A stretch of DNA of 64,000 nucleotides from Alphaproteobacteria bacterium MarineAlpha5_Bin5 (GCA_002938205.1 PTKZ01000006.1:4805-68804), one strand, 5' to 3'; shown: positions 9,603 to 55,767, counted from the stretch's first letter. Translations and numbers: made by a program. The notes: generated from the sequence alone by a model not told the origin.

Positions 9603-10076
9603 ATGTCATGGAATGAAGAAAATGTTGAAAGATTAAGGGAGCTGTGGGATCAAGGTTTGCCAACAGCACAAATAGGTAAGTTACTTGGATTTACTAAAAA
9701 TGCAGTTGTAGGCAAAGCACATAGAATTGGTTTGGAGAGAAGGCCATCACCAATAAGACGAACAGCAGTCAAACCAGATAGAAAAAAAGCTCGTTCTCCA
9801 ACAATGCCCAAGCTTAATTTTGAAACCATTAAAGAGAATGTTGATGATACATCTAAATTAAATCATACTTTTCGGCCTATTGTAAAAAATATATTTGGCA
9901 ATGTTGCTAAAAGGGGATGCGAATGGCCTGAAGGACATCCTGATGAAGTTGATTTTCGTTTCTGTGGTAAAGATAGGTTTGAAGATAAACCTTATTGTTT
10001 AGATCACTGCGCAGTTGCTTATGTATTACCTGAAAAAGAAGAGGCTGAAAGACAACAAGCGAATACCAGAATTTAA
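9603..10076 (+). CDS. gcrA: GcrA cell-cycle regulator
   Basis: MSWNEENVERLRELWDQGLPTAQIGKLLGFTKNAVVGKAHRIGL is the GcrA N-terminal domain, and the conserved Cys/His-rich C-terminus (CEWPEG...FCG...YCLDHC) is present. Confidence 0.9.
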   Translation: MSWNEENVERLRELWDQGLPTAQIGKLLGFTKNAVVGKAHRIGLERRPSPIRRTAVKPDRKKARSPTMPKLNFETIKENVDDTSKLNHTFRPIVKNIFGNVAKRGCEWPEGHPDEVDFRFCGKDRFEDKPYCLDHCAVAYVLPEKEEAERQQANTRI

Positions 10077-10116
10077 TAGAATTAATTTTTTTTGCTGATA
10101 CTTATCTGATAAGTTT

Positions 10117-11367
10117 ATGAGTGAAAAAAAAAATCCGTCTATATTTACCCCTGTATTAATTGGTGGTAGTTTAATTTTACTTATAAGCTTTGCAATACGT
10201 TCTACTTTTGGTTTATTTCAAATCCCAATTGCAGAACAATTTATGTGGGCACGTTCGGAATTCTCACTTGCAATAGCTATACAAAACTTAGCTTGGGGTA
10301 TTGGAACTCCAATTTTTAGTGCATTTGCAGAAAAATTTGGTGACAGAAAAGCAATCACAGTCGGTCTTTTATTGTATGCGCTAGGTGTTTTTATCAGTAG
10401 TACTGCATCTTCACCAGAAGCTCATCAATTTTTAAATGTAATAATAGGTTTTGGAATTGCAGGTAGTGGTTTTGGTCCTATATTGGCTGTTGTTGGGCGC
10501 TCTTCATCTCCAGAAAAAAGATCTCTAGCTCTTGGAGTTACAACTGCTGCGGGATCAGGTGGACAAGTAGTAGGTCCTCCTCTAGCCGCTATACTTTTAA
10601 ATACAATGCAATGGTCTTCGGTATTTATTGTTTTTACAATAATTAGTTTGCTAACTATAATATTAGTTCCTCTATTAAAAACTACCCCAACAAAAACTAA
10701 AAATAAAATTGAAGAAAATCTTAGTGATGCATTAATTGATGCAGCAAAAGATCCCACCTATATTATGCTATTTTTAGGATTTTTTTCTTGTGGTTTTCAA
10801 TTAGCTTTTATTACTGCTCATTTCCCTGCATTTATAGCTGAAGCAAGTAGTCCAATTATACAAGGAAGTCTAATCAGTTTTGTTTGTAATTCTGTTACTT
10901 CGTTAGGTGCTCTTTCAATAGCTTTAATTGGTTTATTCAATATAGCAGGTTCAATAGTTGCTGGAGCTATGGGGAAAAATTTTACTAAAAAATATTTACT
11001 TTCAATAATTTATACTGGCCGAACAATCGCAGCAATATTATTTATTATGTTACCAATAACTCCAAATTCGGTTGTAATTTTCTCAATTGTAATGGGTTCA
11101 TTATGGTTAGCAACAGTGCCTCTAACTTCAGGAATTATTGCATATATTTATGGACTAAAATATATGGGTACTCTTTATGGAATTGTTTTTCTATCTCATC
11201 AAATAGGTTCATTTGTAGGTGTTTGGTTAGGTGGTTTATTTTATGACATTTATGGAAGTTATAATGTTGTATGGTGGGTTGGTATTGGGGTTGGTGCTTT
11301 CTCAGCAATTATACATTTACCTGTTAAAGAAATTCCATTATCAGAAAGAAAATTAAAAATAGCATAG
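10117..11367 (+). CDS. MFS transporter
   Basis: A 416-aa protein with ~12 hydrophobic segments in a 6+6 layout around a central hydrophilic loop. This is a family-level call only. Confidence 0.7.
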   Translation: MSEKKNPSIFTPVLIGGSLILLISFAIRSTFGLFQIPIAEQFMWARSEFSLAIAIQNLAWGIGTPIFSAFAEKFGDRKAITVGLLLYALGVFISSTASSPEAHQFLNVIIGFGIAGSGFGPILAVVGRSSSPEKRSLALGVTTAAGSGGQVVGPPLAAILLNTMQWSSVFIVFTIISLLTIILVPLLKTTPTKTKNKIEENLSDALIDAAKDPTYIMLFLGFFSCGFQLAFITAHFPAFIAEASSPIIQGSLISFVCNSVTSLGALSIALIGLFNIAGSIVAGAMGKNFTKKYLLSIIYTGRTIAAILFIMLPITPNSVVIFSIVMGSLWLATVPLTSGIIAYIYGLKYMGTLYGIVFLSHQIGSFVGVWLGGLFYDIYGSYNVVWWVGIGVGAFSAIIHLPVKEIPLSERKLKIA

Positions 11368-11395
11368 TGTTATCTTATGGTATTTTTTCTTTCCT

Positions 11396-11596
11396 TTGAC
11401 TTTAATTTTATCAAGTTCTCTAGGGTTTTTTTTAACTAGTTGGACTTTTGCTCCATTTGTATGGGTATTAATTATTGTGCCCATAATTGATTTAATTTTA
11501 TCCAATTTAAAAAAAGAAAAGCAATTTAATTATACAGTTATGATAATGATATCTCTAGTTCTTCCAATATGGTTTAAAATAAAGAATCAAAAATAA
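11396..11596 (+). CDS. hypothetical small membrane protein (TTG start); possibly non-functional
   Basis: A 66-aa ORF with two hydrophobic segments and no recognisable RBS. It lies at the left edge of the accessory patch. Confidence 0.25.
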   Translation: MTLILSSSLGFFLTSWTFAPFVWVLIIVPIIDLILSNLKKEKQFNYTVMIMISLVLPIWFKIKNQK

Positions 11597-11683
11597 AATA
11601 ATTTAATCAATGTAAAAATAGTTAATGATTTTTCAAAATAATAAAGTTTGAAATTTTTTTAAAAAAAATATTTATTTAGTTTA

Positions 11684-12553
11684 TTAATCAACTACAATTT
11701 CCTTATAAATATTTTTGATAATTGAATCTTCTATCATTGAAACAGTAATTTTACTCATACATTTTTTACAATGATCACACTCATGAGAAAAAACTCCACA
11801 TGGAGATCCTTCAATATCTATATAGATATTATCATGAAAATCATAACCAGTAACTTGAGGAGTTATCCACCCTCCAAAAATAATTACTCCAGGCTTATTT
11901 AGTGCGGCAGCTGCATGTCCAAAACCACCCTCAGGTCCAACATAGATATTACAAAATTTCATTACTGAACAAGCTTGTCTAAAATCACTATCAAAACTAA
12001 AAATCCCATTGTACTTATTGCTTTTTTTATGAAGAGGTTGAATAATTAAATAATTTTTTTTTAATTTCTCTACCAAGGATAGCCAATTTTGATGGCCCCA
12101 ATCTTTATTAACATGCTTAAATCCCATTCTTGGGTCGTTTATTTTTAAAGACGTTGTTTCTATAAATATAATACCCTTATACTTATAATTATAATTTTTA
12201 TTCCAAAAAGATTTAGAATCTTTAAGTATTTTTTTTGCATAAACTATCTCATTTTTAGAGAAATACAATTCTCCAGGCGTAGGTTTAAAATTAAAATTCC
12301 AAATATTTTTTCCTTTAACAGTTTTCCCCCAATTTATATGCGGCCTATTTCCAGGATGGCTATTAACAAAATAAACTGCTTTATTTTTATCAATTTTTTT
12401 TGGATCCATAATAATATTGGGATTATTTAAAAAAATTATTGATTGAGTTATTATTTTTTTTTTAAAATTACCAACAACTATCTGTCTATCAGGAAATTTT
12501 TGTTTTTGTATTTTGGCAATTCCAGTTGCCATTAATTCATCGCCATAACCCAT
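11684..12553 (-). CDS. glycosyltransferase family 9 (heptosyltransferase-like) protein
   Basis: N-terminal GYGDELMATG and C-terminal VGPEGGFGHAAAALNKPGVIIFGG resemble the GT9 DSGPMHLAAALG.P motif. Confidence 0.55.
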   Translation of the reverse strand: MGYGDELMATGIAKIQKQKFPDRQIVVGNFKKKIITQSIIFLNNPNIIMDPKKIDKNKAVYFVNSHPGNRPHINWGKTVKGKNIWNFNFKPTPGELYFSKNEIVYAKKILKDSKSFWNKNYNYKYKGIIFIETTSLKINDPRMGFKHVNKDWGHQNWLSLVEKLKKNYLIIQPLHKKSNKYNGIFSFDSDFRQACSVMKFCNIYVGPEGGFGHAAAALNKPGVIIFGGWITPQVTGYDFHDNIYIDIEGSPCGVFSHECDHCKKCMSKITVSMIEDSIIKNIYKEIVVD

Positions 12554-12782
12554 ATTATAATAAAGTTTTCATTTAATTATACAATATCCAGTTGAAGATG
12601 TAAAAATTTTTAATTTTAATTTATTTCAAAAGTAGTAAAGTATCTTTTTATTATGTAAAAATATTTAGAGCTATTATGAAAAAATTTCATTTTTTATCTA
12701 TAATCTACTTATTATTATGATTTTTTTTAATAAAAGATTTAATATTTGGACAAAAAATTTGTAAAAACAAAATTTAATTGAA

Positions 12783-13658
12783 GTGGACCTTATCATAAGC
12801 ACCTTAAGTTATTTAATTGTTTATAATTTAAATAATAATAAGTGGTACACAGTTCATAAAAATGATGGTCCTTATTATGGAATAGCACAATATAAAAAAA
12901 ATATTATAGTGGGAAAAAGGAATGGTAATAATTTAATTAACTCTTATGCAACTTTCTTAGTTTATGATTATAAATTCAATTTAATTGAGGAATTAAACCC
13001 AACTCTTCCGATTAGAGATTTACATGGAATTATGGTTCTTAATGATAATTTGTGGGTAACTAGTACATTCGATAATATTATAGGTATTTATAACTTTATT
13101 AGCAAAAAATGGCAATGTTGGAAACCAAGTAAAAAGAAAAATGATATTAAAGAAATTAATGCAAAATTAATAAGCAACATACTAAAAAACAAAACTAAGG
13201 GGGACAAACACTATAATACAATTGGTTTTAATAATGGTTATTTGAACTTAGTTGCTCATAATTGGGGTAAAAGTGAAATATTTTTTTATAAATTAAATAA
13301 TTTAGAGTTTTTCAAAAAAATATATCTAGGTCAAAAGTCACATAATATCTGGTATAATAATAATGAAATATTCACTTTATCTTCAGATACTGGAGAAATA
13401 ATATCTTCTGAAAATTTTAAACTAACCATAACTGAATATCCGAGAGGTTTTGCAAAAGGCAATGATAGAATCTATGTAGGAGTTAGCACTAAAAATAGTT
13501 TACCTGGGAAAAAAAGGGATAGATATAATAGTTCCTTTTATGTTGTTTCTTACAATCATGATTTTAAAGACCAAAAAAATTATTTTTTTAAAAATCTCGG
13601 TGATATAACTGATATATTTTTTTCTAAAAATCTAGAATATAAAAAATCTAGAATATAA
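12783..13658 (+). CDS. hypothetical protein, possibly DUF4915/TIGR03032-like repeat protein
   Basis: GTG start, 291 aa. Spaced segments (DLHGIMVLNDNLWVTST, DKHYNTIGFNNGYLNLVAH, SHNIWYNNNEIFTLSSDTGEI, YPRGFAKGNDRIYVGVS) match my memory of that family's pattern. This was not checked by search. Confidence 0.4.
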   Translation: MDLIISTLSYLIVYNLNNNKWYTVHKNDGPYYGIAQYKKNIIVGKRNGNNLINSYATFLVYDYKFNLIEELNPTLPIRDLHGIMVLNDNLWVTSTFDNIIGIYNFISKKWQCWKPSKKKNDIKEINAKLISNILKNKTKGDKHYNTIGFNNGYLNLVAHNWGKSEIFFYKLNNLEFFKKIYLGQKSHNIWYNNNEIFTLSSDTGEIISSENFKLTITEYPRGFAKGNDRIYVGVSTKNSLPGKKRDRYNSSFYVVSYNHDFKDQKNYFFKNLGDITDIFFSKNLEYKKSRI

Positions 13659-13721
13659 ATTGATATGATTATCTCATTCAATTAAAATTTAACAGTATTA
13701 GAAAAAAAATTTTCAGTTTGA

Positions 13722-13831
13722 GTATATTGTGATCTGTAAGGCAATATAAAAACTTAAGATAAATTTTTTGGCAGTTTAATTGTCCTGCCCAGCGAGATTC
13801 GAACTCACGACCCCCAGATTAGGAATCTGGT
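13722..13831. repeat. 110-nt direct repeat, copy A (tRNA-Arg downstream flank plus degenerate 3' half of the tRNA)
   Basis: It aligns by hand to 15359-15468 with 9 mismatches in 110. Confidence 0.9.
13781..13831 (-). pseudogene. orphan 3' half of tRNA-Arg(CCU): anticodon stem-loop, T arm and a mutated acceptor strand, no CCA
   Basis: tgtcctgcccagcgagattcgaactcacgacccccagattaggaatctggt compares with the intact gene at 15418-15468. Homology stops on the 5' side of the anticodon stem. Confidence 0.85.
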
Positions 13832-13978
13832 CTTACCTCCTGTGATTTTTTTATTTTCTTAAATACTTTGGTTTTTACTCCTCCCGATTGTTTAAATTAA
13901 TGCAAAAATACATGTGCAGTGTGACAGGAGTGTGGTCAAAAATTTTACTAACTTTTAAAAAATTTCTCTTCTTTAAAT

Positions 13979-14899
13979 TTAAATAATTAGTTCTGAAATT
14001 GCCTTAATATGTGAAGGTTTAATTTCACAACAACCTCCTAAAATTGTTGCTCCTTCATTCATAAAATTTTTAACAACATTAAAAAAATGTTTTTCGTTTA
14101 AATCTTTATTTATACCTAATATTTTATTTGGGTTACCTTCTGTGCCCCAACTATCTGCTGATGTAACGACATAGTTATCAGGAATTTTGTTAAAGGCATT
14201 CAGTTTAAAGCCATAAGGTAAATTAAGTGTTTTTAATTCATCTTTTACTAAATCGTAAGCTGTAGGTGAAACACAAGCAGTTAGAATTCCAAGCAATTTG
14301 TCATGCTTAAAGTCATGAACAATCTGTGTAATGTTTTCTCCCGACGGTAACTTTCCATTATCTTTTACATGCACTCCTACTAAAACTGGCAAATTATATT
14401 TATCAATTGACTCAAGAGCAATCTCACATTCTATTCCACTGCCCATCACATCTAAATAAAAAAAATCAATATCATCTTTAAGAAAAAAAGCTTGTTCCTT
14501 AAATCTTAATGTAACTTCTTGTAAATCATCTCCTAAATTTGCACTGTAGGTTTGTTTTTGATTAGGCAGTCCTCCTGCGATAAGAATATTTTTTTTAGAT
14601 ATATCTCGAGCTCGTAAAGCAAGCTCAACCGCCTTTTTATTAATTTTTTCAAAATACTCTAGACAATTATTTTGAATTAATCTTCCTTTCCTGGAGGTGA
14701 AAGTATTAGTAACAATTATTTCTGCTCCAGAGTTTATAAAATCAAGATGTGTGTCAATTATCAGCTGATGATATTCTTCTTTAATTAATGCTTCGGCAGA
14801 CCAAAGAGTTCCGCGTGGCTTCAAACCTCGATTTAGAAGTTCTTGTCCCATGCCACCATCTAAAATTCTTGTTTTTAAAAAAAAATTTTTATCCACCAT
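13979..14899 (-). CDS. homocysteine S-methyltransferase family protein
   Basis: DGGMGQEL, VTNTF and the C-terminal GGCCEIKP zinc-ligand Cys pair fit the S-methyl_trans domain pattern. Confidence 0.8.
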   Translation of the reverse strand: MVDKNFFLKTRILDGGMGQELLNRGLKPRGTLWSAEALIKEEYHQLIIDTHLDFINSGAEIIVTNTFTSRKGRLIQNNCLEYFEKINKKAVELALRARDISKKNILIAGGLPNQKQTYSANLGDDLQEVTLRFKEQAFFLKDDIDFFYLDVMGSGIECEIALESIDKYNLPVLVGVHVKDNGKLPSGENITQIVHDFKHDKLLGILTACVSPTAYDLVKDELKTLNLPYGFKLNAFNKIPDNYVVTSADSWGTEGNPNKILGINKDLNEKHFFNVVKNFMNEGATILGGCCEIKPSHIKAISELII

Positions 14900-14988
14900 A
14901 ATTTATTACTATTTTAACAAGATAATTATAAATTTAATCTTTGTATATTAATATCATACATATAATTTAATTCTAAAAGGAGATTGAT

Positions 14989-15339
14989 ATGGCTTTTAAA
15001 TTATTCAATCAAATCACAAATGAAGAACTACCTTCTATGGAAGTTGAAGGGGTTAATGCTTATCTTAAGGATTTTTCTGTTTCACAAGACTCTAATAAGC
15101 CTATAACAAGTGGCTTGTTTCGCTTAAAAGCCGGTGAATCACTAAAATATACTTATACTTATCATGAAATGAAATTCATAGTTGATGGAAGCTTTACTTT
15201 AGAAGATGAAACTGGACAAAAAGAAACTGTAAAAGCAGGTGATTTGCTGTACTTTCCAAAAGGAACAGAAATGACATTTACAACAGACGACTTCGGTTTA
15301 GGATTCTTTTGTGGTCAACGAGGTGAAGGAGAAGCATAA
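14989..15339 (+). CDS. small cupin-domain protein (DUF861/EutQ-like)
   Basis: A 116-aa single beta-barrel pattern (HEMKFIVDGSFTLEDETGQKETVKAGDLLYFPKGTEMTF). There is no obvious HxH metal motif. Confidence 0.5.
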   Translation: MAFKLFNQITNEELPSMEVEGVNAYLKDFSVSQDSNKPITSGLFRLKAGESLKYTYTYHEMKFIVDGSFTLEDETGQKETVKAGDLLYFPKGTEMTFTTDDFGLGFFCGQRGEGEA

Positions 15340-15358
15340 AATAATTTCCTCAGTGTGG

Positions 15359-15468
15359 GTATATTGTGGCCAGTAAGAAAATATAGAAACTTAAGATAAA
15401 TTTTTTGGCAGTTTAATTGGCGTGCCCGGCGAGATTCGAACTCACGACCCCCAGATTAGGAATCTGGT
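15359..15468. repeat. 110-nt direct repeat, copy B (downstream flank plus 3' half of intact tRNA-Arg copy 1)
   Basis: See copy A at 13722-13831. Confidence 0.9.
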
Positions 15469-15494
15469 GCTCTATCCTACTGAGCTACGGGCAC
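15418..15494 (-). tRNA. tRNA-Arg (anticodon CCU), CCA encoded
   Basis: The reverse complement is GTGCCCGTAGCTCAGTAGGATAGAGCACCAGATTCCTAATCTGGGGGTCGTGAGTTCGAATCTCGCCGGGCACGCCA. It folds by hand into a cloverleaf: acceptor GTGCCCG/CGGGCAC, D stem GCTC/GAGC, anticodon stem CCAGA/TCTGG with loop TTCCTAA, T stem GTGAG/CTCGC with loop TTCGAAT. Confidence 0.9.
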
Positions 15495-15640
15495 TGCTTG
15501 TTTTTCAAAACTTTTTCTAGTCCGACTGAACTTTAAAAAGTTCATGGTACCACCATTTTTTCAAAATAACATATATTACAGAGAATGGCGATGGATTTAC
15601 TATCAACATTCCTCGTGGTTGGTGGTAGAATAAGAATGAA

Positions 15641-16636
15641 ATGAAAGTTGATTTAAATAAATGGTACAGATGTAAAGTTGATAAAGAAACATATAAAAGT
15701 TTAACAAAAAAATCTGATTATCTTGGTCTGAGACATGTTTTGACCTGGTTGTTTTTTTTAATTTTGATTGGTTATTTTGCTTTTATAACTTGGGGTACAT
15801 TGTGGTCTTTTTTTTGGTTTTTTATATATGGAAATATATTTATGGCATGTGACCCAATTCGACATGATTGTCAGCACAATTTAGCCTTTAAATCAAAATG
15901 GTTAAACACATTTTTTTACCAATTAACTTCCTTTATGTTTAGTTATGAACCTGTGCGTTGGAGGTGGAGCCATTTTAGACATCACAGTCATACTCTATCT
16001 GTCGAAGGAATTTATGATCACGAAATACAAATTACTAAACCTACTGATTTATTCTTAGTTCTTTTAATGCATATTCCTGGAGGAAATATCTTAATTATTC
16101 ATAAAACTTTTCTATTTTTTCATTTAGAAACAATTAAACATGCTATTGGAATAGTTACACCAATAATGGAAGATTGTATCCCGGCAAAAGAAAGATCTAA
16201 ATGTTGGGTTTCAGCTCGAATTCATGTTTCTTTATGGATTTTAATAATAAGTTCTTCATTTTTCTTTCAAACTTGGCTTCCTGCACTTTACTTACTTTTA
16301 CCATTTGTTTATGGAACTACATTTATGCAAACCATACATTTTATGCAGCATGCAGGTTTAAAAAATAATGTGAAGGATCATCGTTTATCTGTGAGAACAG
16401 TTAAATTGAATCCTATTTTTAGCTTTTTAAATTGGAATATGGAATATCATTTGGAACATCACATGTTTCCAACTGTTCCTTCTTATAATTTAAAAAAATT
16501 AAATAAAGTTATAAAAGATCAATTACCAAAACCCAAAAAAGGGATATTTGATGCTTATAAAGAAATTATTCCTACTTTAATTAAACAATCAAAAAACCCT
16601 CATTATATTTTAAATGTAGATTTGCCCAAAACTTAA
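15641..16636 (+). CDS. fatty acid desaturase family membrane protein
   Basis: Three His boxes (HDCQH, HFRHHSH, HLEHHMF) are interspersed with TM segments. Confidence 0.8.
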   Translation: MKVDLNKWYRCKVDKETYKSLTKKSDYLGLRHVLTWLFFLILIGYFAFITWGTLWSFFWFFIYGNIFMACDPIRHDCQHNLAFKSKWLNTFFYQLTSFMFSYEPVRWRWSHFRHHSHTLSVEGIYDHEIQITKPTDLFLVLLMHIPGGNILIIHKTFLFFHLETIKHAIGIVTPIMEDCIPAKERSKCWVSARIHVSLWILIISSSFFFQTWLPALYLLLPFVYGTTFMQTIHFMQHAGLKNNVKDHRLSVRTVKLNPIFSFLNWNMEYHLEHHMFPTVPSYNLKKLNKVIKDQLPKPKKGIFDAYKEIIPTLIKQSKNPHYILNVDLPKT

Positions 16637-16707
16637 CAAAAATTGGAATGAGTAACTTATAGCAGATTAGGAATCTGGTGCTCTATCCTAGTATTAAATA
16701 TGGACAC
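16621..16707. repeat. 87-nt direct repeat, copy 1 (about 42 nt of non-tRNA sequence plus the 5' half of tRNA-Arg)
   Basis: It aligns by hand to 18866-18952, sharing tttg..caaaacttaac and aatga..taa.ttata blocks followed by the tRNA 5' half. It includes the desaturase stop codon. Confidence 0.7.
16663..16707 (-). pseudogene. orphan 5' half of tRNA-Arg(CCU)
   Basis: cagattaggaatctggtgctctatccta is a 28-nt exact match to the intact genes. The remainder, up to ..tggacac, is degenerate. Confidence 0.85.
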
Positions 16708-16709
16708 GA

Positions 16710-17561
16710 TTAATTCATCTGAATATACATAGATGTCAGTAAATGACTTTGATTAAGATAAGGAAAATTATTTTTTAAAATATCAAAATAATATAATTGC
16801 AAATATTTTCCTGCATAGATTATTTTATATCTATTATTATACAATAAAAAAGAATGGACCATATAACTTTCATTCCAAAATGAATTTCTTTTTTTGTTTT
16901 CTATTACATCTTTTGAATAATTTTTTGGAAAATGAATATCATGCCAGTGAATAATTGCTCCTTTATTTTTGATAATGGGAATAACTTCTAATATTTCAAA
17001 GTTAACATCACTTTCAAATTTCGAGATATGAGATGAATCAATAAATAGAAAATCTAAATCTTTAAAAAAGTCTAATGGCATATCTTGTATTTTTTTATTA
17101 ATAATTTCAAAGTTATCACTAATTTTTGATTTAAAAATTTTATTATATGGATTAATAGAGAATAGATTGCCCTCAAATCCTTTTTTTTTATTTTCATTAA
17201 GTGCTTTTAAAATAATTTTTGTAGTATCGCCTGATCCAATTTCAACAATTTTTTTTGGTTTTTTTTGTCTTATAAAAGCATACAGCATAAATGAATCTAC
17301 TAAAGAAAGACCATCATTTTTATAAGGGATGAATTCATGTGAAAAATTTTTACATAAAATATTAATATTAGCTATTTGATACTTAATATTAAGATTAACA
17401 CCATCTGTTTTGAATACTTTTTCGTAATCTTTATTTTGAATTTCATATAAATCAGGAATTGGAGAATAAAAATGTGCTCTAGTAATATGAATTTTAAAAT
17501 ATTTTTCAAAAAATAAAAAAATAAAATTATAAATATTTAATATTAATTTTTTCATCATCAC
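16710..17561 (-). CDS. class I SAM-dependent methyltransferase (CmcI/Methyltransf_24-like)
   Basis: Motif I is IVEIGSGDTT, and LFIDSSH followed by GAIIHWHDI is typical of that subgroup. Confidence 0.6.
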   Translation of the reverse strand: MMMKKLILNIYNFIFLFFEKYFKIHITRAHFYSPIPDLYEIQNKDYEKVFKTDGVNLNIKYQIANINILCKNFSHEFIPYKNDGLSLVDSFMLYAFIRQKKPKKIVEIGSGDTTKIILKALNENKKKGFEGNLFSINPYNKIFKSKISDNFEIINKKIQDMPLDFFKDLDFLFIDSSHISKFESDVNFEILEVIPIIKNKGAIIHWHDIHFPKNYSKDVIENKKRNSFWNESYMVHSFLLYNNRYKIIYAGKYLQLYYFDILKNNFPYLNQSHLLTSMYIQMN

Positions 17562-17646
17562 CTCAATATATCGTCTACTTTTAAATGCATATACTAAAAT
17601 TCAGTGAGGCATGGATAGAGTCGACTGGTTAATTGTTATTTTTTAC

Positions 17647-17720
17647 CGTGCCCGGCGAGATTCGAACTCACGACCCCCAGATTAGGAATCTGGTGCTCTA
17701 TCCTACTGAGCTACGGGCAC
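17647..17720 (-). tRNA. tRNA-Arg (anticodon CCU), second copy identical to 15421-15494; CCA not encoded
   Basis: The 74 nt are identical to copy 1 from the discriminator to the 5' end. The 3' flank reads GTA instead of CCA. Confidence 0.88.
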
Positions 17721-17886
17721 GCCTTGTACATGCTAGATAATTTCAACCTTAGAGATTTACCATTTAAATTTGAGTATCACATAAGTACCACAAATCTAAT
17801 TGTGAATTTATCATAAGATTTATTATTGAGCGAGTTTGTTTTATTTAATTCACTCTTACGTAAGAGATCAGTGTAAAAAATAGAAG

Positions 17887-18744
17887 TTAATGAGTCATTT
17901 TATTAAAAACATAAGTATTAAATAAGTATTTAAGAAATGTTAAAAGATAAAAATAATTACTTTTTTTTAATATATTTTTAATTCTAAAACTTTTAACTCC
18001 CAATGGAAAAAAAGGGATAAAGCAAGTACCATGATAAGAATATTTTACTTTTTTAAAATTATTATGTTTTAAATTATTTAATATTTTTTCTAAATTTATG
18101 TCATTAATATAGTAATCCATATAATAAGATAGTCTTTGAATATTTGAAGGAGAGCTAATTTTATTAACACCGTGAAATGAAACTGCCGAATGTATAAAAA
18201 TTATTAATCGATTTGGTAGGGGTTCAATTTTTTTAATAATATTTAAACCACATTGATCGAATAGCAATGTCTCCCCTCCCCAAGATTTTTCCCAAGTTGG
18301 AGAACAATAGTAAATTGCATTTGCAATATGCAAATCTCCATATTTAGAATGTGAATGATCAACATGAGAACCTAGAACACCTTCGTTGTTCATGCTATGA
18401 AAAGGGTAATAACCTCCATAATTTTCCCATTCACTCAATGATATTACTTTCATATCGCCAATAAATTTTTGAATTAATTTGATAAATGAATTACCTCCTA
18501 AAATATCTACTGGGTATCTAGAATATTTTGTAAGATCTTTATCTCCATAAACTTTTTTGTTTAATTCTAAGTATGTGCTAAAATTCTTCTTTATATTTTT
18601 TAATCCCCCTGCATTTTGAAATTCTTTATTTATACTTAAGAAAAGTTCTTCAGACAGGAAATTATCAATTACTACATGTGGAAATGGGTGGATATTCCAT
18701 TCTAAATTTAATTTTTCAATTTCTTTGTTCAATGTTTCAATCAT
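17887..18744 (-). CDS. 2OG-Fe(II) oxygenase superfamily protein
   Basis: GSHVDHSH supplies the HxD motif, with a distal His in SFHGVNKI and GGETLLFD between them, fitting a double-stranded beta-helix hydroxylase. Confidence 0.6.
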   Translation of the reverse strand: MIETLNKEIEKLNLEWNIHPFPHVVIDNFLSEELFLSINKEFQNAGGLKNIKKNFSTYLELNKKVYGDKDLTKYSRYPVDILGGNSFIKLIQKFIGDMKVISLSEWENYGGYYPFHSMNNEGVLGSHVDHSHSKYGDLHIANAIYYCSPTWEKSWGGETLLFDQCGLNIIKKIEPLPNRLIIFIHSAVSFHGVNKISSPSNIQRLSYYMDYYINDINLEKILNNLKHNNFKKVKYSYHGTCFIPFFPLGVKSFRIKNILKKSNYFYLLTFLKYLFNTYVFNKMTH

Positions 18745-18865
18745 AGATTAATGTTATTTATTAACTATTTACACTAACGCTGTTAAAAAGAAAGATAAGA
18801 TTTGTATTCTTATTTTTAAAAGAGGATGCAACTTTTTTTTGATATATGTTTCCAATAATTAAATT

Positions 18866-18952
18866 TTTGTTCAAAACTTAACTTTTCCCAAATGAAATAA
18901 TTATAACTCCGGTTTAGGAATCTGTTGCTCTATCATACTAAGATACGGACAC
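18866..18952. repeat. 87-nt direct repeat, copy 2 (non-tRNA block plus a degenerate 5' half of tRNA-Arg)
   Basis: See 16621-16707. Confidence 0.7.
18911..18952 (-). pseudogene. degenerate orphan 5' half of tRNA-Arg(CCU)
   Basis: ggtttaggaatctgttgctctatcatactaagatacggacac compares with agattaggaatctggtgctctatcctactgagctacgggcac. Confidence 0.75.
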
Positions 18953-19018
18953 TTAATTAAATATATTATAAATAAATCAATTGTTGAAACATATATCTAA
19001 TGTAGTTAAAATTAATAT

Positions 19019-19717
19019 ATGAAAAAAATTGCTGCTTTTATTGCATCTGGAAGTGGAATGGGCGCAGATGCTGCAAAACATTTATCATCAAAAGGATATG
19101 AAATAGGAATTATGTCCTCATCTGGTAAAGGTGAAGAGCTTGCCAAAAAACTAAATGGGGTGGGATTTACCGGCTCTAATCTTTCAACTAAAGATATTGA
19201 AAATTTTATTAATAAAGTATCTTCAAAGTTTGGAAAAATTGATGTACTTGTAAATAGTGCTGGTCATGGACCAAAAGGGGAGATATTAGAAATTTCAGAT
19301 GATGAATGGATTAGTGGAATGGAAGTCTACTTTCTCAATGTGGTTCGTCCAATCAGATTAGTTACACCAATTATGCAAAAACAAAAAAATGGTTCTATCA
19401 TAAATATTTCAACTTTTGCAACATTTGAACCTGAGTCAGCTTTTCCTACCTCTGGTGTTTTTCGTGCGGGACTTGCCTCTTTTATAAAACTTTATTCAAA
19501 CAAATATGCAAAAGACAATATAAGAATAAATAATATATTACCGGGATTCATTGATAGTCTTCCAGAAAAAGAAATTTTTAAAAAAAGAATTCCTTTACAA
19601 AGATATGGGAAAGTTAGTGAAATTTCCGCTGTTGTTGAATTACTTGCCTCTGAAGGTGGATCCTACATTACTGGTCAAAATATACGTGTTGATGGTGGTA
19701 TTACTAAATCTGTTTAA
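19019..19717 (+). CDS. short-chain dehydrogenase/reductase family protein, atypical active site
   Basis: It has a Rossmann N-terminus (ASGSGMG), NSAG and the C-terminal ITGQNIRVDGG. By hand alignment, F-R-A-G-L sits where Y-x-x-x-K is expected. Confidence 0.7.
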   Translation: MKKIAAFIASGSGMGADAAKHLSSKGYEIGIMSSSGKGEELAKKLNGVGFTGSNLSTKDIENFINKVSSKFGKIDVLVNSAGHGPKGEILEISDDEWISGMEVYFLNVVRPIRLVTPIMQKQKNGSIINISTFATFEPESAFPTSGVFRAGLASFIKLYSNKYAKDNIRINNILPGFIDSLPEKEIFKKRIPLQRYGKVSEISAVVELLASEGGSYITGQNIRVDGGITKSV

Positions 19718-19753
19718 TTATATTTTTTTTTCTTTATTTAATAATTTACTTTT

Positions 19754-20743
19754 ATGTTGAATAAAAAAATAGATAGAAAATTTTGTGTAGCTCCTATGAT
19801 GGGATATACCACTCCTTATGCAAGGCAGTTATATAGAATTTTATCAAAAAAGACTTTTTTATTTACAGAAATGATTGCTACTAAAACTATGATTCATTCT
19901 AAAAATGCTCAAATGATTATTCGCAATAACAATCAAAATCCAATTGCCTTACAAGTTGGAGGTTCAGATTTAAAAGAATTAAATAAATGTTCAAAAATTG
20001 CTTATGAATTAAATTATGATGAAATTAATCTAAATGTTGGATGCCCTAGCAAAGCTGTACAAAAAGGTAGTTTTGGTGCTTGCTTAATGCGTGATAAAAT
20101 TTTGGTAAGACAATCTTTAGAATCAATGCAAATTAATAAAAATATTGAAGTTTCATTAAAGTGCAGAATAGGACTTGGTAAAGAATTAAATTATGATTTT
20201 TTTGAAGAATTTATAGATGAGATAATAAAAAGTGGAATTAAGATTGTATATGTACATGCTCGTAATGCTATTTTAAATGGAATTAGTCCAAAAGCTAACA
20301 GAAATGTACCTCGTTTAAAATATGATTTTGTAAAAAAAGTACAATCCAAATATCCTTCTGTAACTTTTGTTTTAAATGGAGGCATTAATAGCATTGATAA
20401 AGCTTTAAAATTAAAAAATGAGTACGATGGCGTTATGTTAGGGAGATTAATTCAAAATAATCCATTTTGTTTAAAAAATGTTGATGAACTTTTTTATAAT
20501 TGTAAAGAAAAATATCAAATTAACGAGAATACTGTTCACGATTATTTCAATTTTATAAAACCAAACGTTGGTAATGATTCTATATTTAGATTGATGAGCC
20601 CTTTGCTTCAAATTTTTTTTGGAATCCCAAACAGTAAAGAGTTTAAATCAAAAATTCATAACATTATGCAAAAACAAAAAGTTGATCTATTAGAAAATAT
20701 TTTCCTCGATTTTATAAAAAAACAAAAAATTTTATTAAACTAA
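19754..20743 (+). CDS. dusA: tRNA-dihydrouridine synthase A
   Basis: CVAPMMGYTTPYARQLYR and NLNVGCPS are present, and the length (329 aa) is DusA-like. Confidence 0.8.
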   Translation: MLNKKIDRKFCVAPMMGYTTPYARQLYRILSKKTFLFTEMIATKTMIHSKNAQMIIRNNNQNPIALQVGGSDLKELNKCSKIAYELNYDEINLNVGCPSKAVQKGSFGACLMRDKILVRQSLESMQINKNIEVSLKCRIGLGKELNYDFFEEFIDEIIKSGIKIVYVHARNAILNGISPKANRNVPRLKYDFVKKVQSKYPSVTFVLNGGINSIDKALKLKNEYDGVMLGRLIQNNPFCLKNVDELFYNCKEKYQINENTVHDYFNFIKPNVGNDSIFRLMSPLLQIFFGIPNSKEFKSKIHNIMQKQKVDLLENIFLDFIKKQKILLN

Positions 20744-21270
20744 AAGGGTATCTGATACGAAAAACTAATTATTTCAACGCCTGGATTTTTATTACCAATG
20801 TTGGCGTTTGATATATGTCCAAATGAAGTAGCAATTCTATTATTGTTTTCCAATTTATAACTTATTTCTAAAGTTGTTCTAAATTCAATATTATTACCTA
20901 ATTTTTTACCATCTCCATCATCGTAATAGCCTACACCAAAACTTGGCGTAAATACGTAATCCGATTCTTCACCAGTAAATAATTGTCCAAGATTATCTTC
21001 TAAATATATTCCAACAATAAAATACGAAGCTGAATCAGAAGTGATTTCAATTCCGGTAAATGGTTTTAGATAAAAAAAATTATCTTCTTCTGGCCCTATA
21101 TCAAAAAGTGTTTTATCAAAACGTCTCTCATAACGAAAATCTGTAGCTTGATTTGAAGATGATCCATCAAATTTTACATCAAAAAATCCAATACCAAAAA
21201 CATCATAGCCTCCTGTTAATGCAGGAAAAGACCACAAAAAGGAAAATAAAAAAAATAAAAAATTTCTCAC
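20740..21270 (-). CDS. outer-membrane acyloxyacyl hydrolase / lipid A 3-O-deacylase (PagL)-like protein
   Basis: It has a signal peptide, a beta-barrel-like alternating pattern, a C-terminal FGHISNANIGNKNPGVE (the HxSN motif) and a terminal aromatic residue. Confidence 0.55.
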   Translation of the reverse strand: MRNFLFFLFSFLWSFPALTGGYDVFGIGFFDVKFDGSSSNQATDFRYERRFDKTLFDIGPEEDNFFYLKPFTGIEITSDSASYFIVGIYLEDNLGQLFTGEESDYVFTPSFGVGYYDDGDGKKLGNNIEFRTTLEISYKLENNNRIATSFGHISNANIGNKNPGVEIISFSYQIPF

Positions 21271-21315
21271 TCTTTTACAATAAGTGAAAAATTAAAAGTA
21301 TCAAACATATTTAAA

Positions 21316-22128
21316 CTATTTAGACTCAAATAAATCTATAATATCTCCTTTTTCACTAAAAATCCCTGCTAATACCTTCATATTATTCAATGGTTGTTTA
21401 AATAGTGTACAAACAACATCATTTTTTAATTTATCAAAATTATATTTATGTTCTGATTGATATCCACGAACAATTCTTTGAAAAGAATTATATGGCTTAT
21501 TAATTTGTGAAAAATTTTGATATCCCCACCAAAAACAATCATTTTGAGCAGACAAAGGTCTAGATATGTCTACACCTCTGTTTACAAAAAGAATTTTTTT
21601 TGTTTGAGAAAATGCTGCATGTTTTAAATTAGAAAAATATTCTTTATGACCAGGTATAGACGCAATATAAGAATTTAATTTTGATGTCCATTTTGAAATT
21701 TTTATTGTTCCTTGAGAAGCAATATTTCTTATATCTTCTGGATCAAGATCATAAGATTTAATAGTATTGTCAACACCATGACTAAACATCCATTCAATTA
21801 TTTCTTTTGGATTTGGTGCAGTTTGTAATTGTTGCAGTTTAGTAAACATCTCTTCCTGTGCCCCTCTTAAAAACACTATATCGTCTGAATCCAATTCATA
21901 TTTTGCCATCAATTTAAAACGTAGTCTAATAACTTTAGAGAGAGTATTCTTTGCATCATTACCCAAACCTATAATATTACCTAAAAAAATTAATTTATCG
22001 TCAGTTTGAAAATTTTCAATAATATATTTTTTTATTGAATTAAATGAATTTATATTTGAATGAATCGAGCCAACAGCCCAAATTCTATTAGCTTTTTTAA
22101 ATTCAATAAAATTTGAAAGATTACTCAA
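21316..22128 (-). CDS. lambda-phosphatase/ApaH-like metallophosphoesterase fold protein with substituted metal-ligand motifs (likely pseudoenzyme)
   Basis: The collinear motif positions read GSIHS (for GDxHG), GNIIGLG (for GDxxDRG), RGAQEE (for RGNHE), WMFSHGVDNTIKSY (for W..NGG..T..SY) and FVNRGV (for FVHAG). Confidence 0.5.
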   Translation of the reverse strand: MSNLSNFIEFKKANRIWAVGSIHSNINSFNSIKKYIIENFQTDDKLIFLGNIIGLGNDAKNTLSKVIRLRFKLMAKYELDSDDIVFLRGAQEEMFTKLQQLQTAPNPKEIIEWMFSHGVDNTIKSYDLDPEDIRNIASQGTIKISKWTSKLNSYIASIPGHKEYFSNLKHAAFSQTKKILFVNRGVDISRPLSAQNDCFWWGYQNFSQINKPYNSFQRIVRGYQSEHKYNFDKLKNDVVCTLFKQPLNNMKVLAGIFSEKGDIIDLFESK

Positions 22129-54179: not shown

Positions 54180-54599
54180 ATGAAAATAAATTACTGGTTA
54201 ATGAAATCTGAACCTTCTACTTGGTCATGGAATAATCAAGTAAAAGATAAAATAACAATGTGGGATGGGGTCAGAAACTATCAAGCTAGAAATAATTTAA
54301 TGAAAATGAAACAAAAAGATTTATGTTTCTTTTATCATTCTGTCACTGAAAAATCTATTGTGGGCGTCGTTGAAGTAATAAAAGAACATTATCCAGATCC
54401 AACTGATAAAACTGGAAGGTTTGTCGTAGTGGATGTCAAAACTAAATATAAATTTAAGAATCCGGTAAATCTTGAGCAAATTAAAAATAATCCAAAATTA
54501 TCTGATATCCCTCTTATAAAACAAAGTAGATTATCTGTGATGCCAATTAGAATCTCAGAATGGAATGCAATTATTAAAATATCTGAGAAACAACGGTGA
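54180..54599 (+). CDS. EVE (PUA-like) domain protein
   Basis: YWLMKSEPSTWSW, WDGVRNYQARNNL, CFFYHS and IVGVVEV are present, and the length is 139 aa. Confidence 0.8.
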   Translation: MKINYWLMKSEPSTWSWNNQVKDKITMWDGVRNYQARNNLMKMKQKDLCFFYHSVTEKSIVGVVEVIKEHYPDPTDKTGRFVVVDVKTKYKFKNPVNLEQIKNNPKLSDIPLIKQSRLSVMPIRISEWNAIIKISEKQR

Positions 54600-55456
54600 C
54601 AACAAAAATTTTATGGATTGCTTCTTATCCTAAAAGTGGCAATACTTGGATAAGATCAATTATATCTTCATTATTTTATACAAAAAAAGGCGACTTTAAT
54701 TTTAACTTATTGAATTTAATTGAATTGTTTGAGCAAAAGAAAAATTTTAATTTTGTTAATAATATTAATCAAGAAGATTACAAAAATTTGCATAAAATAG
54801 AAATTATATCAAAATATTGGTTAGAGGCTCAAAATTCTATAATTAATCAAAGACATTCAATAAATCCTATTTACAATGTCTTCAAAACTCATAATGCCAA
54901 TCTATTCGTCAATTCAAACATTTTTACTAAATCTGATTATACTGCAGGAATCATTTATTTAGTTAGAGATCCTCGTGAAATTGCTATTTCTTATTCGAAA
55001 CATATGGGGAAAGGCATAGACCAAACAATAGACATCATGCTTAATGAAAAAACTACTTTAAAACCTCCAAACGATTTTCCGACATCTATAATTTCAACAT
55101 GGGAACTACATTATAAAAGCTGGAAAAAAACCAATGCTCCAAAATTAATATTAAAATATGAAGACATGATAGAGAATACAAAAGAAACAATCGAAAGAAT
55201 TATAGTATTTTTATGCATCATTTTTCAAATAAAAAAAGACAGTTTTGAAAAAAAAATAAATAATATTATAAACTCTACCAATATTAATAAATTTAGGCAG
55301 CATGAATTAAAATTTGGTTTTGCTGAATCATCAAATAAATCTTATTTCTTTGGTAATGCAAAAAGAGATAGTTGGAAAAAAATACTTTCAAAAAAACAGG
55401 TCAAAAAAATTGAGGATAAATTTTATAACACAATGCGAGAAATTGGATATATATAA
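54596..55456 (+). CDS. PAPS-type sulfotransferase domain protein (paralogue 1)
   Basis: A GTG start forms a GTGA overlap with the EVE stop. The 5'-PSB motif is YPKSGNTW and the 3'-PB motif is YLVRDPREIAIS. Confidence 0.75.
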   Translation: MTTKILWIASYPKSGNTWIRSIISSLFYTKKGDFNFNLLNLIELFEQKKNFNFVNNINQEDYKNLHKIEIISKYWLEAQNSIINQRHSINPIYNVFKTHNANLFVNSNIFTKSDYTAGIIYLVRDPREIAISYSKHMGKGIDQTIDIMLNEKTTLKPPNDFPTSIISTWELHYKSWKKTNAPKLILKYEDMIENTKETIERIIVFLCIIFQIKKDSFEKKINNIINSTNINKFRQHELKFGFAESSNKSYFFGNAKRDSWKKILSKKQVKKIEDKFYNTMREIGYI

Positions 55457-55594
55457 TTGTAAATTTTTTATTGATATTTGCTTCAATTGTGATTAAATTT
55501 TAAATTATGGTAACAAAAAAAGCTGGATTAATAATTCAAAAGTTAATTTTGATGAATATATAAAAATGTATAATTAATCAATTGGTAACAATAG

Positions 55595-55765
55595 CGATTT
55601 GTTGATGTTAAGGCTAAAACTAAAATGAAAAAACCAATTAACCTTGAACAAATTAAAAACAACCACAAATTAAGCAAACTTGCCTTTATAAAACAAAGAA
55701 AGTTATTTGTAATGCCAATTTTAAAAAAAGAGTGGAATGAAATTATAAAAATTTCCGAAAATTAA
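55595..55765 (+). pseudogene. remnant of a second EVE-domain gene (C-terminal ~55 codons only)
   Basis: My own translation gives RFVDVKAKTKMKKPINLEQIKNNHKLSKLAFIKQRKLFVMPILKKEWNEIIKISEN. The intact copy reads RFVVVDVKTKYKFKNPVNLEQIKNNPKLSDIPLIKQSRLSVMPIRISEWNAIIKISEKQR. A stop lies immediately upstream at 55592. Confidence 0.8.
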
Positions 55766-55767
55766 TA

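Follow-up and report, generated by a model that had tools for sequence, protein, structure and literature searches.

The DNA analyzed here is a 64,000-nucleotide stretch of the genome of Alphaproteobacteria bacterium MarineAlpha5_Bin5 (GCA_002938205.1, PTKZ01000006.1:4805-68804); the whole stretch is referred to below as the window, with positions counted from its first letter. Between a core MFS transporter gene and a core SDR gene, the window contains a lineage-specific inserted block of 7.65 kb (11368-19018), which harbors two intact genes for tRNA-Arg(CCU), three halves of the same gene, and a set of metabolic genes lying among them. An initial annotation of the window had described the five tRNA pieces as dividing ~5 kb (13722-18952) into cassettes of one or two genes, and had proposed serial capture and turnover of small cassettes at one tRNA gene. 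The island is larger than this description, and it was probably built as elements integrated site-specifically, time after time, into a single tRNA-Arg(CCU) gene, all integrase modules being lost later. The tRNA pieces are as follows.

13781-13831, minus strand: orphan 3′ half, tRNA positions 27-77, with three acceptor-arm substitutions and no ARAGORN call
15418-15494, minus strand: intact tRNA-Arg(CCU) gene (tRNA#1), CCA encoded, called by ARAGORN and scoring 68.9 bits with the Rfam tRNA family
16663-16707, minus strand: orphan 5′ half a, tRNA positions 1-42, exact over positions 15-42 (16663-16690, 28 nt, E 1e-10) and scrambled at its 5′ end
17646-17721, minus strand: intact tRNA-Arg(CCU) gene (tRNA#2), called by ARAGORN and Rfam, 100% identical to tRNA#1 over 74 nt (17647-17720), CCA not encoded
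18911-18953, minus strand: orphan 5′ half b, the most decayed piece, 87.5% identical over 40 nt (18914-18953, E 8e-6; nhmmer E 3e-5), 66 nt from the core SDR gene

When tRNA#1 and its flank were used as the query in blastn and nhmmer searches of the whole window, exactly five significant matches were obtained, tRNA#1 included, all on the minus strand, and the next-best matches had E values of at least 0.12. The five same-strand pieces of the initial annotation (two intact genes, one 3′ half, and two 5′ halves) are therefore confirmed, and ARAGORN, the check suggested there, calls both intact genes as tRNA-Arg(CCT) on the minus strand. Rfam finds the two tRNAs and no other RNA family, both in the 9-kb region and in the whole window. 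The partial copies are significant in a proper alignment, with E values of 1e-38, 1e-10, and 8e-6, the first of which belongs to the orphan 3′ half together with its downstream flank (13713-13831, 90.8% identical over 119 nt to tRNA#1 and its flank). This leftmost piece consists of tRNA positions 27-77 followed by ~80 nt of downstream flank, and forms a 130-nt direct repeat of 88% identity in the output of a repeat finder (13702-13831 versus 15339-15468). Local alignment of the other intergenic gaps of the window yielded no further decayed tRNA pieces above a shuffled null. The two intact genes differ at their 3′ ends: tRNA#1 encodes CCA (15418-15420), whereas tRNA#2, otherwise identical over 74 nt, reads ...GGGCACG-GTA (17646-17650).

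The positions at which the halves are broken are informative. The 3′ piece begins at tRNA position ~26-27 and the 5′ pieces extend from position 1 up to ~42 and ~45-48, so that the only segment common to 3′-type and 5′-type pieces is the anticodon stem-loop, in agreement with the initial annotation; the boundaries thus fall at a canonical crossover sublocation. The window also has the hallmark arrangement of Islander-type islands, an intact target tRNA with a co-oriented displaced fragment, as 13781-13831 and its flank match tRNA#1 at 88-91%.

The same pattern recurs in marine metagenomes, which were scanned with a pattern specific to the 3′ part of the tRNA of this lineage. The survey comprises 101 marine loci with guanine-plus-cytosine (GC) contents of 0.23-0.49 (all but two at 0.23-0.37), and contains 69 full tRNA copies and 38 internal orphan 3′ pieces. 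Because the pattern required tRNA positions 34-70, piece starts could fall only at positions 1-34, and within that range 36 of the 38 orphan 3′ pieces start at positions 25-32 (mode 29, n = 15), with almost none at positions 6-24. The 5′ pieces end at positions 39-49 (five pieces) or 25-26 (two pieces). Adjacent pieces are co-oriented in 25 of 25 cases, with a median spacing of 867 nt; in 10 of 12 loci the orphan 3′ pieces are found to the 3′ side of the intact gene, in five of six the 5′ pieces are found to its 5′ side, and the window shows the same geometry. The clustering of the starts upholds the reading of the pieces as recombination scars at the anticodon stem-loop. A single island with one attL and one attR does not fit, as had been stated, given five pieces, both types of half, and two intact genes. 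The conserved 5′ part of the tRNA matched only prophage contigs of unrelated high-GC bacteria in IMG/VR, so tRNA-Arg(CCU) is a recurrent target that such prophage contigs abut as well. One of them (L098, where L-numbers label fetched comparison loci or contigs; GC 0.55) breaks the tRNA-Arg(CCU) gene just after the anticodon stem (…CCTAATCTGG|TGCACC), indicating that the same sublocation is used in distant taxa.

The flanks of the tRNA pieces resemble the arms of attachment (att) sites, and four of them can be recognized in the window.

13702-13780, minus strand: flank downstream of the orphan 3′ half, a decayed P′-type arm, 88% identical to 15339-15417
13832-13943, minus strand: P arm (attR side) of the element that carries the homocysteine S-methyltransferase (HMT) and cupin genes, with tandem CCACACT repeats at ~13917-13935
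15340-15417, minus strand: P′ arm (attL side) downstream of tRNA#1, with CCACAAT...CCACACTG at 15351-15371
17556-17645, minus strand: type-B P′ arm, downstream of tRNA#2; its arm motif is degenerate, and intact tRNAs in L202, L188, and L207 have flanks 79-87% identical to it

The flank family of 13702-13780 follows intact tRNAs and orphan 3′ halves in ~24 metagenome pieces, and the P arm at 13832-13943 is 78-88% identical to the sequence that precedes orphan 3′ halves in L112, L171, L174, and L207, which carry different cargo. A tandem CCACACT-type motif lies 48-70 nt past the tRNA end in L147, L160, L110, L138, L112, L207, L188, and L202. Putative arm-type repeats of this motif thus mark the two ends of 13832-15417 and recur in homologous arms of other loci, and the motif YCACACTG occurs only twice in the 64 kb (13917-13924 and 15351-15358), both times on the tRNA strand and at opposite ends of the HMT-cupin block. 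For heterobivalent tyrosine integrases, it is standard that the arm-type sites are arranged as direct repeats in the two arms.

Two families of P arms can be distinguished. The first, a ~85-nt arm with a tandem ACTGTAGTA/ACTGTATCA repeat whose two copies vary together, precedes 23 of the 38 orphan 3′ halves in the survey; it is found in L190, which bears recombinases, as well as in one-gene cassettes that have no integrase, and its repeat recurs in the P′ arm of L190. The second, which comprises the P arm of the window and those of L112, L171, and L174, carries CCACACTC-CTG-CCACACTG.

The block at 13832-15417 is bounded by tRNA#1 and its P′ arm on one side and by a P arm and the 3′ half on the other, with cargo and no recombinase between them. 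As both attL and attR are complete and no integrase is present, the block fits the definition of a cis-mobilizable element (CIME) (PMC5704250) and is, as judged from its sequence, an integrase-less, CIME-like element. The other three blocks of the window retain one recognizable arm each. Since a decayed P′ arm (13702-13780) follows the orphan 3′ half, the segment to its left, with a GT9-like open reading frame (ORF) and a 291-aa ORF, would be an older element of the same kind, and the HMT-cupin element would have entered its attL.

Integrases that could have made such sites are found beside the same tRNA pieces at related loci. L130, with the order GcrA, one ORF, 3′ half, and integrase, encodes a 383-aa P4-like integrase (Phage_integrase 4e-30, Arm-DNA-bind_3 3e-10) 119 nt from an orphan 3′ half, and the same P4-like integrase is present in L117 and L203. 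A second integrase type (2e-22) lies just past the 3′ half in L207, and L197 retains a 36-aa integrase remnant. In L190, a 4.8-kb element bears a resolvase and a weak match to an integrase; the intact tRNA combines a 5′ part identical to that of the window with a T arm of foreign origin, and the far end is occupied by the native 3′ half. In the window, by comparison, no Phage_integrase, resolvase, or transposase domain was found in any annotated ORF of the 64 kb by Pfam scans and precomputed Pfam marks, which leave a few ORFs without a Pfam match, and tblastn with a metagenomic integrase detected no integrase remnant. The absence of a recombinase from the window thus stands as the initial annotation had stated it, as does the first of its two suggested drivers, a recombinase encoded elsewhere, with cognate-looking tyrosine integrases adjoining the same pieces in L130, L117, L203, and L207. 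As no tyrosine or serine integrase lies inside the island, with integrases only at these related loci and in L190, the window holds a remnant rather than an autonomous island, and no ordinary integrase-bearing island spans the region.

One-gene blocks between tRNA pieces are common in the survey. The most frequent cargo gene, cluster c5 (~200 aa, no Pfam match), is found in 11 contigs, and other blocks carry a DUF805 protein, a SAM-dependent (S-adenosylmethionine-dependent) methyltransferase, a DUF4328 protein, or a MatE transporter; genes for a fatty-acid hydroxylase, a polysaccharide lyase, and a GST also adjoin tRNA pieces. No recombinase is encoded among these cassette and neighbor genes. 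The c5 product was considered as a candidate recombinase and rejected, as it resembles a secreted protein and lacks any Pfam match. A recent spread of c5 cassettes was likewise rejected, because the copies differ by 25-30% between contigs, which makes the cassettes old. By eye, cluster c50 (229 aa; L198, L185, and L176) is a membrane protein beside the tRNA with a rhodopsin-like RYIDW...PLQ motif, and cluster c30 (L154, L137, L158, and L136), among the cargo by tRNA pieces, resembles Dcm-type cytosine methyltransferases in its motifs, which hints at restriction-modification cargo.

The island and its boundaries contain the following genes.

10117-11367, plus strand: core MFS transporter, left island boundary (Pfam MFS_1 4e-39), 76-87% identical in relatives
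11368-13701, no strand assigned: oldest inserted segment, with the GT9-like ORF and the 291-aa ORF
11684-12553, minus strand: GT9-like ORF within the oldest inserted segment
12783-13658, plus strand: 291-aa ORF, no Pfam match
13979-14899, minus strand: HMT, cargo (Pfam S-methyl_trans 8e-46)
14989-15339, plus strand: small cupin, cargo (Pfam Cupin_3 6e-10)
15641-16636, plus strand: membrane fatty-acid desaturase, cargo (Pfam FA_desaturase 5e-29)
16710-17555, minus strand: SAM-dependent methyltransferase, cargo (Pfam Methyltransf_24 8e-11), 281 aa in public contigs
17887-18744, minus strand: 2-oxoglutarate (2OG)-Fe(II) oxygenase, cargo (Pfam 2OG-FeII_Oxy_3 6e-11)
19019-20743, plus strand: core SDR (19019-19717) and Dus (19754-20743), right island boundary (Pfam), syntenic in relatives

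Pfam agrees with the earlier assignments of all five cargo genes and with their mixed orientation (minus, plus, plus, minus, and minus in the order HMT, cupin, desaturase, methyltransferase, and oxygenase). The cargo is entirely metabolic by Pfam, with no phage structural or replication genes in the island, and the composition of the island is not distinct from that of its surroundings. The remaining annotatable ORFs of the window are housekeeping genes, with a few ORFs lacking a Pfam match.

A comparison with 80 species-level relatives, fetched around Dus (54-74% amino-acid identity) and including the SAGs (single-amplified genomes) AG-4xx, MarineAlpha5 bins, HIMB59-LRMED-199, and SAR11-SAG-MED31, revealed empty and differently filled sites rather than a shared cassette order. 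The lineage may be HIMB59/MarineAlpha5-like rather than belonging to the Pelagibacterales sensu stricto. The core order in these relatives is PGK-GcrA-MFS ... SDR-Dus. In eight of them (L003, L006-L008, L010, L011, L015, and L016), the gap between MFS and SDR measures only 62-73 nt and contains no tRNA, and in others it extends to 0.7-9 kb; a tRNA-Arg(CCT) gene occupies this site only in L014 and L079 among the 80. The segment 11368-13701 is missing from all 80 relatives and is found only in contigs of the same population. Metagenomic neighborhoods complete the picture: L187 has GcrA-tRNA-Dus with nothing else between, the tRNA lies 17 nt after MFS in L118, L170, L194, L139, and L173, and L135 has the order GcrA, divergent tRNA copy, methyltransferase, tRNA, one ORF, SDR, one ORF, and Dus. 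From these arrangements, the tRNA is native to the locus in much of the clade, with variable DNA building up on both sides.

The cargo genes themselves are found in other contexts. Homologs of HMT (83-86% DNA identity) adjoin the tRNA in L156, L148, and L157, either among other neighbors or inverted; the cupin accompanies HMT in L157, where the arrangement is inverted, and is missing from L156 and L148. Desaturase homologs (88-98%) are found almost only on contigs of 1-2 kb, which fits the presence of repeats on both sides of the gene. In L224 (3384-4541 versus window 15603-16707), the desaturase is 98-99% identical in the midst of other neighbors; an additional 500-aa ORF separates the tRNA-proximal flank from the desaturase leader, the tRNA copy has decayed to 75-78% identity, an NmrA gene takes the place of HMT-cupin, and 5′ half a is less decayed than that of the window (positions 3-43 at 92.7%). 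Content thus changes from one lineage to the next, and most of the junctions fall at the tRNA units or close to them.

Taken together, the array scars and the differently filled sites bear out the serial capture of small cassettes at a tRNA locus, and serial site-specific capture at one tRNA by a recombinase encoded elsewhere is well supported. In the proposed mechanism, crossover would occur within the anticodon stem-loop, at tRNA positions ~26-43. On the 3′ side, an incoming attachment site (attP) consisting of a P arm, the core, the tRNA 3′ part, and a P′ arm would regenerate the tRNA upon integration and displace the old 3′ half toward MFS, yielding the GT9-like/291-aa segment first and the HMT-cupin block later. 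On the 5′ side, the attP would carry the tRNA 5′ part or a whole tRNA copy; the former would leave the native 5′ half stranded upstream, on the SDR side, and the latter would leave the insert between two intact genes, and such events would yield the oxygenase, methyltransferase, and desaturase blocks. The end state would be cargo fenced by att scars.

Both kinds of 5′-side event have precedents in pelagiphages. HTVC019P-type pelagiphages integrate mid-gene in SAR11 tRNAs, and some leave two tRNA copies or bring their own (10.1101/410191); HTVC120P integrates into a tRNA-Arg, which is restored by a phage-borne 5′ end (Zhao et al., 10.1101/410191). As 5′-restoring and tRNA-duplicating attP types account for the orphan 5′ halves and the second intact gene, these features are no obstacle to an integrase model; the initial annotation had counted them against a simple one-island attL/attR picture. 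The layout of the window, with half b 66 nt from SDR, the 3′ orphan toward MFS, and the intact copies in the middle of the array, is as this picture would have it, and half b, lying beside the core flank where 5′-restoring insertions predict it, is probably the original native 5′ half. Comparable layouts occur at other loci: L162 has a MatE gene between two intact tRNAs, L135 and L179 have two copies, and L126 and L142 have a 5′ orphan separated by 4.5-9 kb from an intact tRNA, with inserts that carry ABC-transporter genes and no integrase. The evidence for growth on the 5′ side is nevertheless weaker than that for the 3′ side, and integrase-mediated deletion from the core to a secondary site is an alternative there.

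Within the population of the window, the order is fixed. Exact-protein look-ups with SDR, desaturase, HMT, and MFS in Tara, JGI, and ENA data and in the NCBI metagenome-assembled genome GCA_002938235.1 returned, from at least 10 independent assemblies, contigs with an identical cassette order (100% identity) wherever they cover any part of the array, with one deviant contig, and they revealed no presence/absence polymorphism of the cassettes within the population. The full MFS-to-Dus order is spanned at 100% identity by L081, L082, L087, L208, L211, and L234, from different samples and assemblers. Many contigs of the population stop at the tRNA pieces, as repeats of 74-130 nt would cause, and none contains a circular junction. 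Ongoing turnover, part of the original proposal, is therefore not borne out, and variation is seen only between lineages. The deviant contig (L209/L216/L230, ERZ841987 NODE_5144) is 100% identical to window positions 9641-17499 and continues with EPSP synthase, IspDF, and lipoyl synthase. Because its break at 17499 lies inside the methyltransferase gene, away from the tRNA pieces, it is treated as a probable chimeric assembly; a real rearrangement is the alternative.

Several observations weigh against an island built by repeated integrase-mediated insertion. No integrase, integrase fragment, or excisionase was detected in the window, and an intergenic alignment check found no att remnant left beside MFS. 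No conserved arm was seen beside the 5′ orphans, and no integrase-bearing 5′-restoring element was present in the fetched loci. IMG/VR scans with the lineage-specific tRNA 3′ part gave no match, blastn of the whole tRNA and each half against INPHARED returned generic tRNA similarity and no pelagiphage attP, and no relatives of the metagenomic integrases were found in IMG/VR, so that neither a half of the lineage tRNA nor the integrases of its loci lie on any phage or IMG/VR contig searched. No excised, empty-site, or reordered variants were found among the at least 10 assemblies of the population. Finally, repeats of 74-130 nt at 88-100% identity mean that homologous recombination could have made or reshuffled some junctions. 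We infer the order of events, and integrases rather than RecA as the maker of each junction, from the arrangement of the scars.

The region between the tRNA and the desaturase gene has conserved features of its own.

15495-15640, no strand assigned: conserved region from the 5′ end of tRNA#1 to the first gene, with a GTACCAC repeat in the proximal ~60 nt and a distal 33-nt promoter-like motif (15602-15634)

This region is 84-90% identical in ~10 loci with different downstream genes. The 33-nt motif, CTCAACATTCCTCGTGGTTGGTGGTAGGATAAT, is almost invariant; it stops 4-10 nt short of the ATG in many different genes, near the tRNA and elsewhere in these islands (L139, L173, L113, L162, L119, L169, L121, L188, L147, L108, L152, L175, L021, L226, L224, and L228, besides a single copy in the window). 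Its consensus is TCAACA-17-TAGRAT with an extended -10 element; the copy in the window reads TCAACA-17-TAGAAT with an upstream TG. This organization and the short distance to the ATG suggest that the genes behind the motif may have leaderless transcripts. The motif has no match in Rfam or IMG/VR and is not tied to any integrase gene; the 106 nt around it have a fold z of -2.5, and a promoter and terminator scan gave no enrichment over shuffles. A tandem GTACCAC(C) repeat is located 55-80 nt upstream of nearly every intact copy of the lineage tRNA, with two units in most loci, one at tRNA#1 (15540-15560), and degenerate units at tRNA#2 (~17795-17815); GGTACCAC occurs once in the 64 kb. The repeat may serve as a promoter element of the tRNA or as an arm site.

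The conserved arms and motif give some weight to an alternative, possible though not favored, in which the cassettes are live, non-autonomous units of one or two ORFs with a complete split attP, moved in trans by the integrases of rarer autonomous elements, so that the tRNA would serve as an integron-like platform. The HMT-cupin block, with its complete attL and attR and its arm repeats, would be such a unit. One-gene units of ~0.8 kb recur with different neighbors (c5 in 11 contigs, and clusters c73, c78, and c160), and integrase-bearing and integrase-less units have one P arm family in common. The non-coding P arm of c5 cassettes, with a mean identity of 0.88 versus 0.74 for the adjacent ORF, is the more conserved of the two, which suggests that it may be under constraint, and the outward promoter-like motif adjoins the first gene. 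On the other hand, the c5 genes, 25-30% apart, look old, the cassette order is fixed within the population, circular junctions were not observed, and three of the four cassettes of the window lack one arm. Doubt is somewhat greater still that mini-cassettes with a split attP are both still moved in trans and, for the first of them, expressed from the conserved outward, apparently leaderless promoter.

It is improbable that homologous recombination alone produced the array, through tandem duplication and unequal crossing-over or double-crossover uptake followed by random decay of the copies. The direct repeats noted above would be adequate RecA substrates, the flank homology reaches past the tRNA, and SAR11-type populations are known for high recombination. 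However, random decay would not place 36 of 38 orphan 3′ starts within 8 nt, and homologous recombination does not predict that 5′ and 3′ pieces should overlap at precisely the anticodon stem-loop, nor does it predict a T arm of foreign origin in a regenerated tRNA as in L190, tandem arm motifs at both ends of a cassette, or integrases adjoining the pieces.

It is very unlikely that the array is a true integron-type or new dedicated capture machine for which a recombinase class of its own would be encoded beyond the window. The initial annotation had likened the outcome to an integron, and the outward likeness extends to small cassettes arrayed at a fixed platform, the absence of a local recombinase, and the promoter-like motif at the platform edge. 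This resemblance is an analogy only: with no Phage_integrase domain in the 64 kb there is no IntI, no other recombinase was found, the genes point in both directions, and the boundaries consist of att sites derived from the tRNA, whose direct arm repeats are of the kind typical for λ/P4-type integrases, while ordinary Phage_integrase proteins lie at the same sites elsewhere. No attC-type boundaries were seen, with no dedicated attC model search made. An assembly or binning artefact in the form of a repeat-induced chimera at the tRNA repeats is hardly credible, since the many contigs that stop at tRNA pieces and the change of context at 17499 in L209/L216/L230 are set against six contigs from different samples and assemblers that span the whole order at 100%, and against the position of the odd break in the methyltransferase gene rather than at a tRNA piece.

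Flexible gene content is also seen outside the tRNA array. Relatives L003-L016 have an extra gene of ~0.8-1.5 kb between SDR and Dus that is absent from the window (19717-19754), and several of them have ~0.95 kb between a PagL-like gene and a 270-aa ORF, also absent from the window (21270-21316); these differences are small-scale gene gains or losses. Farther along, an EVE-domain ORF and sulfotransferase pair is present twice in tandem (54180-56658), and more sulfotransferases and a 2OG oxygenase are found from 58.6 to 64 kb and beyond (L092), with low-GC stretches (0.18-0.24). These two stretches possibly form a second flexible region, devoted to surface modification.

SAR11-type and related streamlined marine alphaproteobacteria are usually portrayed as nearly devoid of mobile elements, although their flexible gene pools are large. 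The locus provides a concrete route of gene gain, in which site-specific integration would add single tailoring or transport genes on both sides of tRNA-Arg(CCU), and it supplies defined att cores, arm motifs, and candidate integrases. Its repeats fragment short-read assemblies exactly at these cassettes. If mini-cassettes were indeed mobilized in trans, they would constitute a functional analogue of integrons made from tRNA att sites, and would explain single-gene exchange in genomes regarded as free of mobile genetic elements.

Among known systems, tDNA-targeted islands of the Islander concept, in which the target tRNA is regenerated and a fragment displaced, include anticodon-loop sublocation sites (PMC4383910). 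The locus shares with them an integrase target in a tRNA gene, an intact gene with a co-oriented fragment, an identity block from the anticodon stem, and tandem-repeat arms; it differs in that the window has no integrase, the units measure only 0.9-1.6 kb, both 3′ and 5′ fragments occur, and two genes are intact. CIMEs have lost their integration genes and kept attL and attR, and tandem accretion takes place at resident att sites (Pavlovic 2004, Bellanger 2011, reviewed in PMC5704250). The HMT-cupin block matches this description, and the array fits accretion into a resident element's att site. However, CIMEs are decayed integrative and conjugative or integrative and mobilizable elements (ICEs/IMEs) of many kb at gene 3′ ends in Firmicutes, whereas the units described here, recognized from sequence alone, have one or two genes and sit at an anticodon-loop site; their host is an AT-rich marine alphaproteobacterium.

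The KplE1 prophage of E. coli integrates at argW, a tRNA-Arg(CCU) gene, and the ssrA islands of Dehalococcoides have tandem ssrA repeats. KplE1 is larger than the blocks of the window and, unlike them, bears an integrase (PMC2951348); the ssrA (tmRNA) islands, which are site-specific insertions at a single tDNA in a small genome, are likewise larger and integrase-bearing (PMC3146451). With integrons, the locus has in common an array of small cassettes at a fixed platform and a promoter-like element at the platform edge.

The closest ecological parallels come from marine hosts. The locus resembles HTVC019P-type pelagiphages in its mid-tRNA site (the phage targets include a tRNA-Arg, a likeness at the level of the amino acid) and in the displaced 5′ half or two copies; it differs from them in having no phage genes in the window and no sequence match to any phage record searched. 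For Pelagibacter, a 2026 preprint puts forward tRNA-anchored phage insertion where the hypervariable region is bounded, one of these boundaries being an Arg-tRNA (10.64898/2026.04.03.716430). A literature search of incomplete coverage found no prior description of such arrays in SAR11/HIMB59-type genomes. In Prochlorococcus, partial tRNAs and fragmented integrases are scattered in islands that mostly lack an element (10.1101/2020.12.28.424599), and the redundancy of the array is, contrary to the initial annotation, not unexpected in a streamlined genome. Islands seeded by tycheposons resemble the locus in their streamlined marine host, tRNA anchoring, scattered partial tRNAs, and tandem units parted by partial tRNAs, and L190, like tycheposons, pairs a tyrosine recombinase with a small serine recombinase. 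Integration at a tRNA with full and partial copies in a recurrent island is thus found here as well, although a recombinase and a replication module are absent from the window, the phylum is another, the cassettes are far smaller than elements of 10-20 kb, and 5′ orphans also occur. The island-building logic of Prochlorococcus would thereby extend to a second streamlined lineage. The mechanism is thus known in kind, and what is unusual is the scale of 0.8-1.6 kb (often one ORF with full att arms), the two-sided growth, and the host clade.

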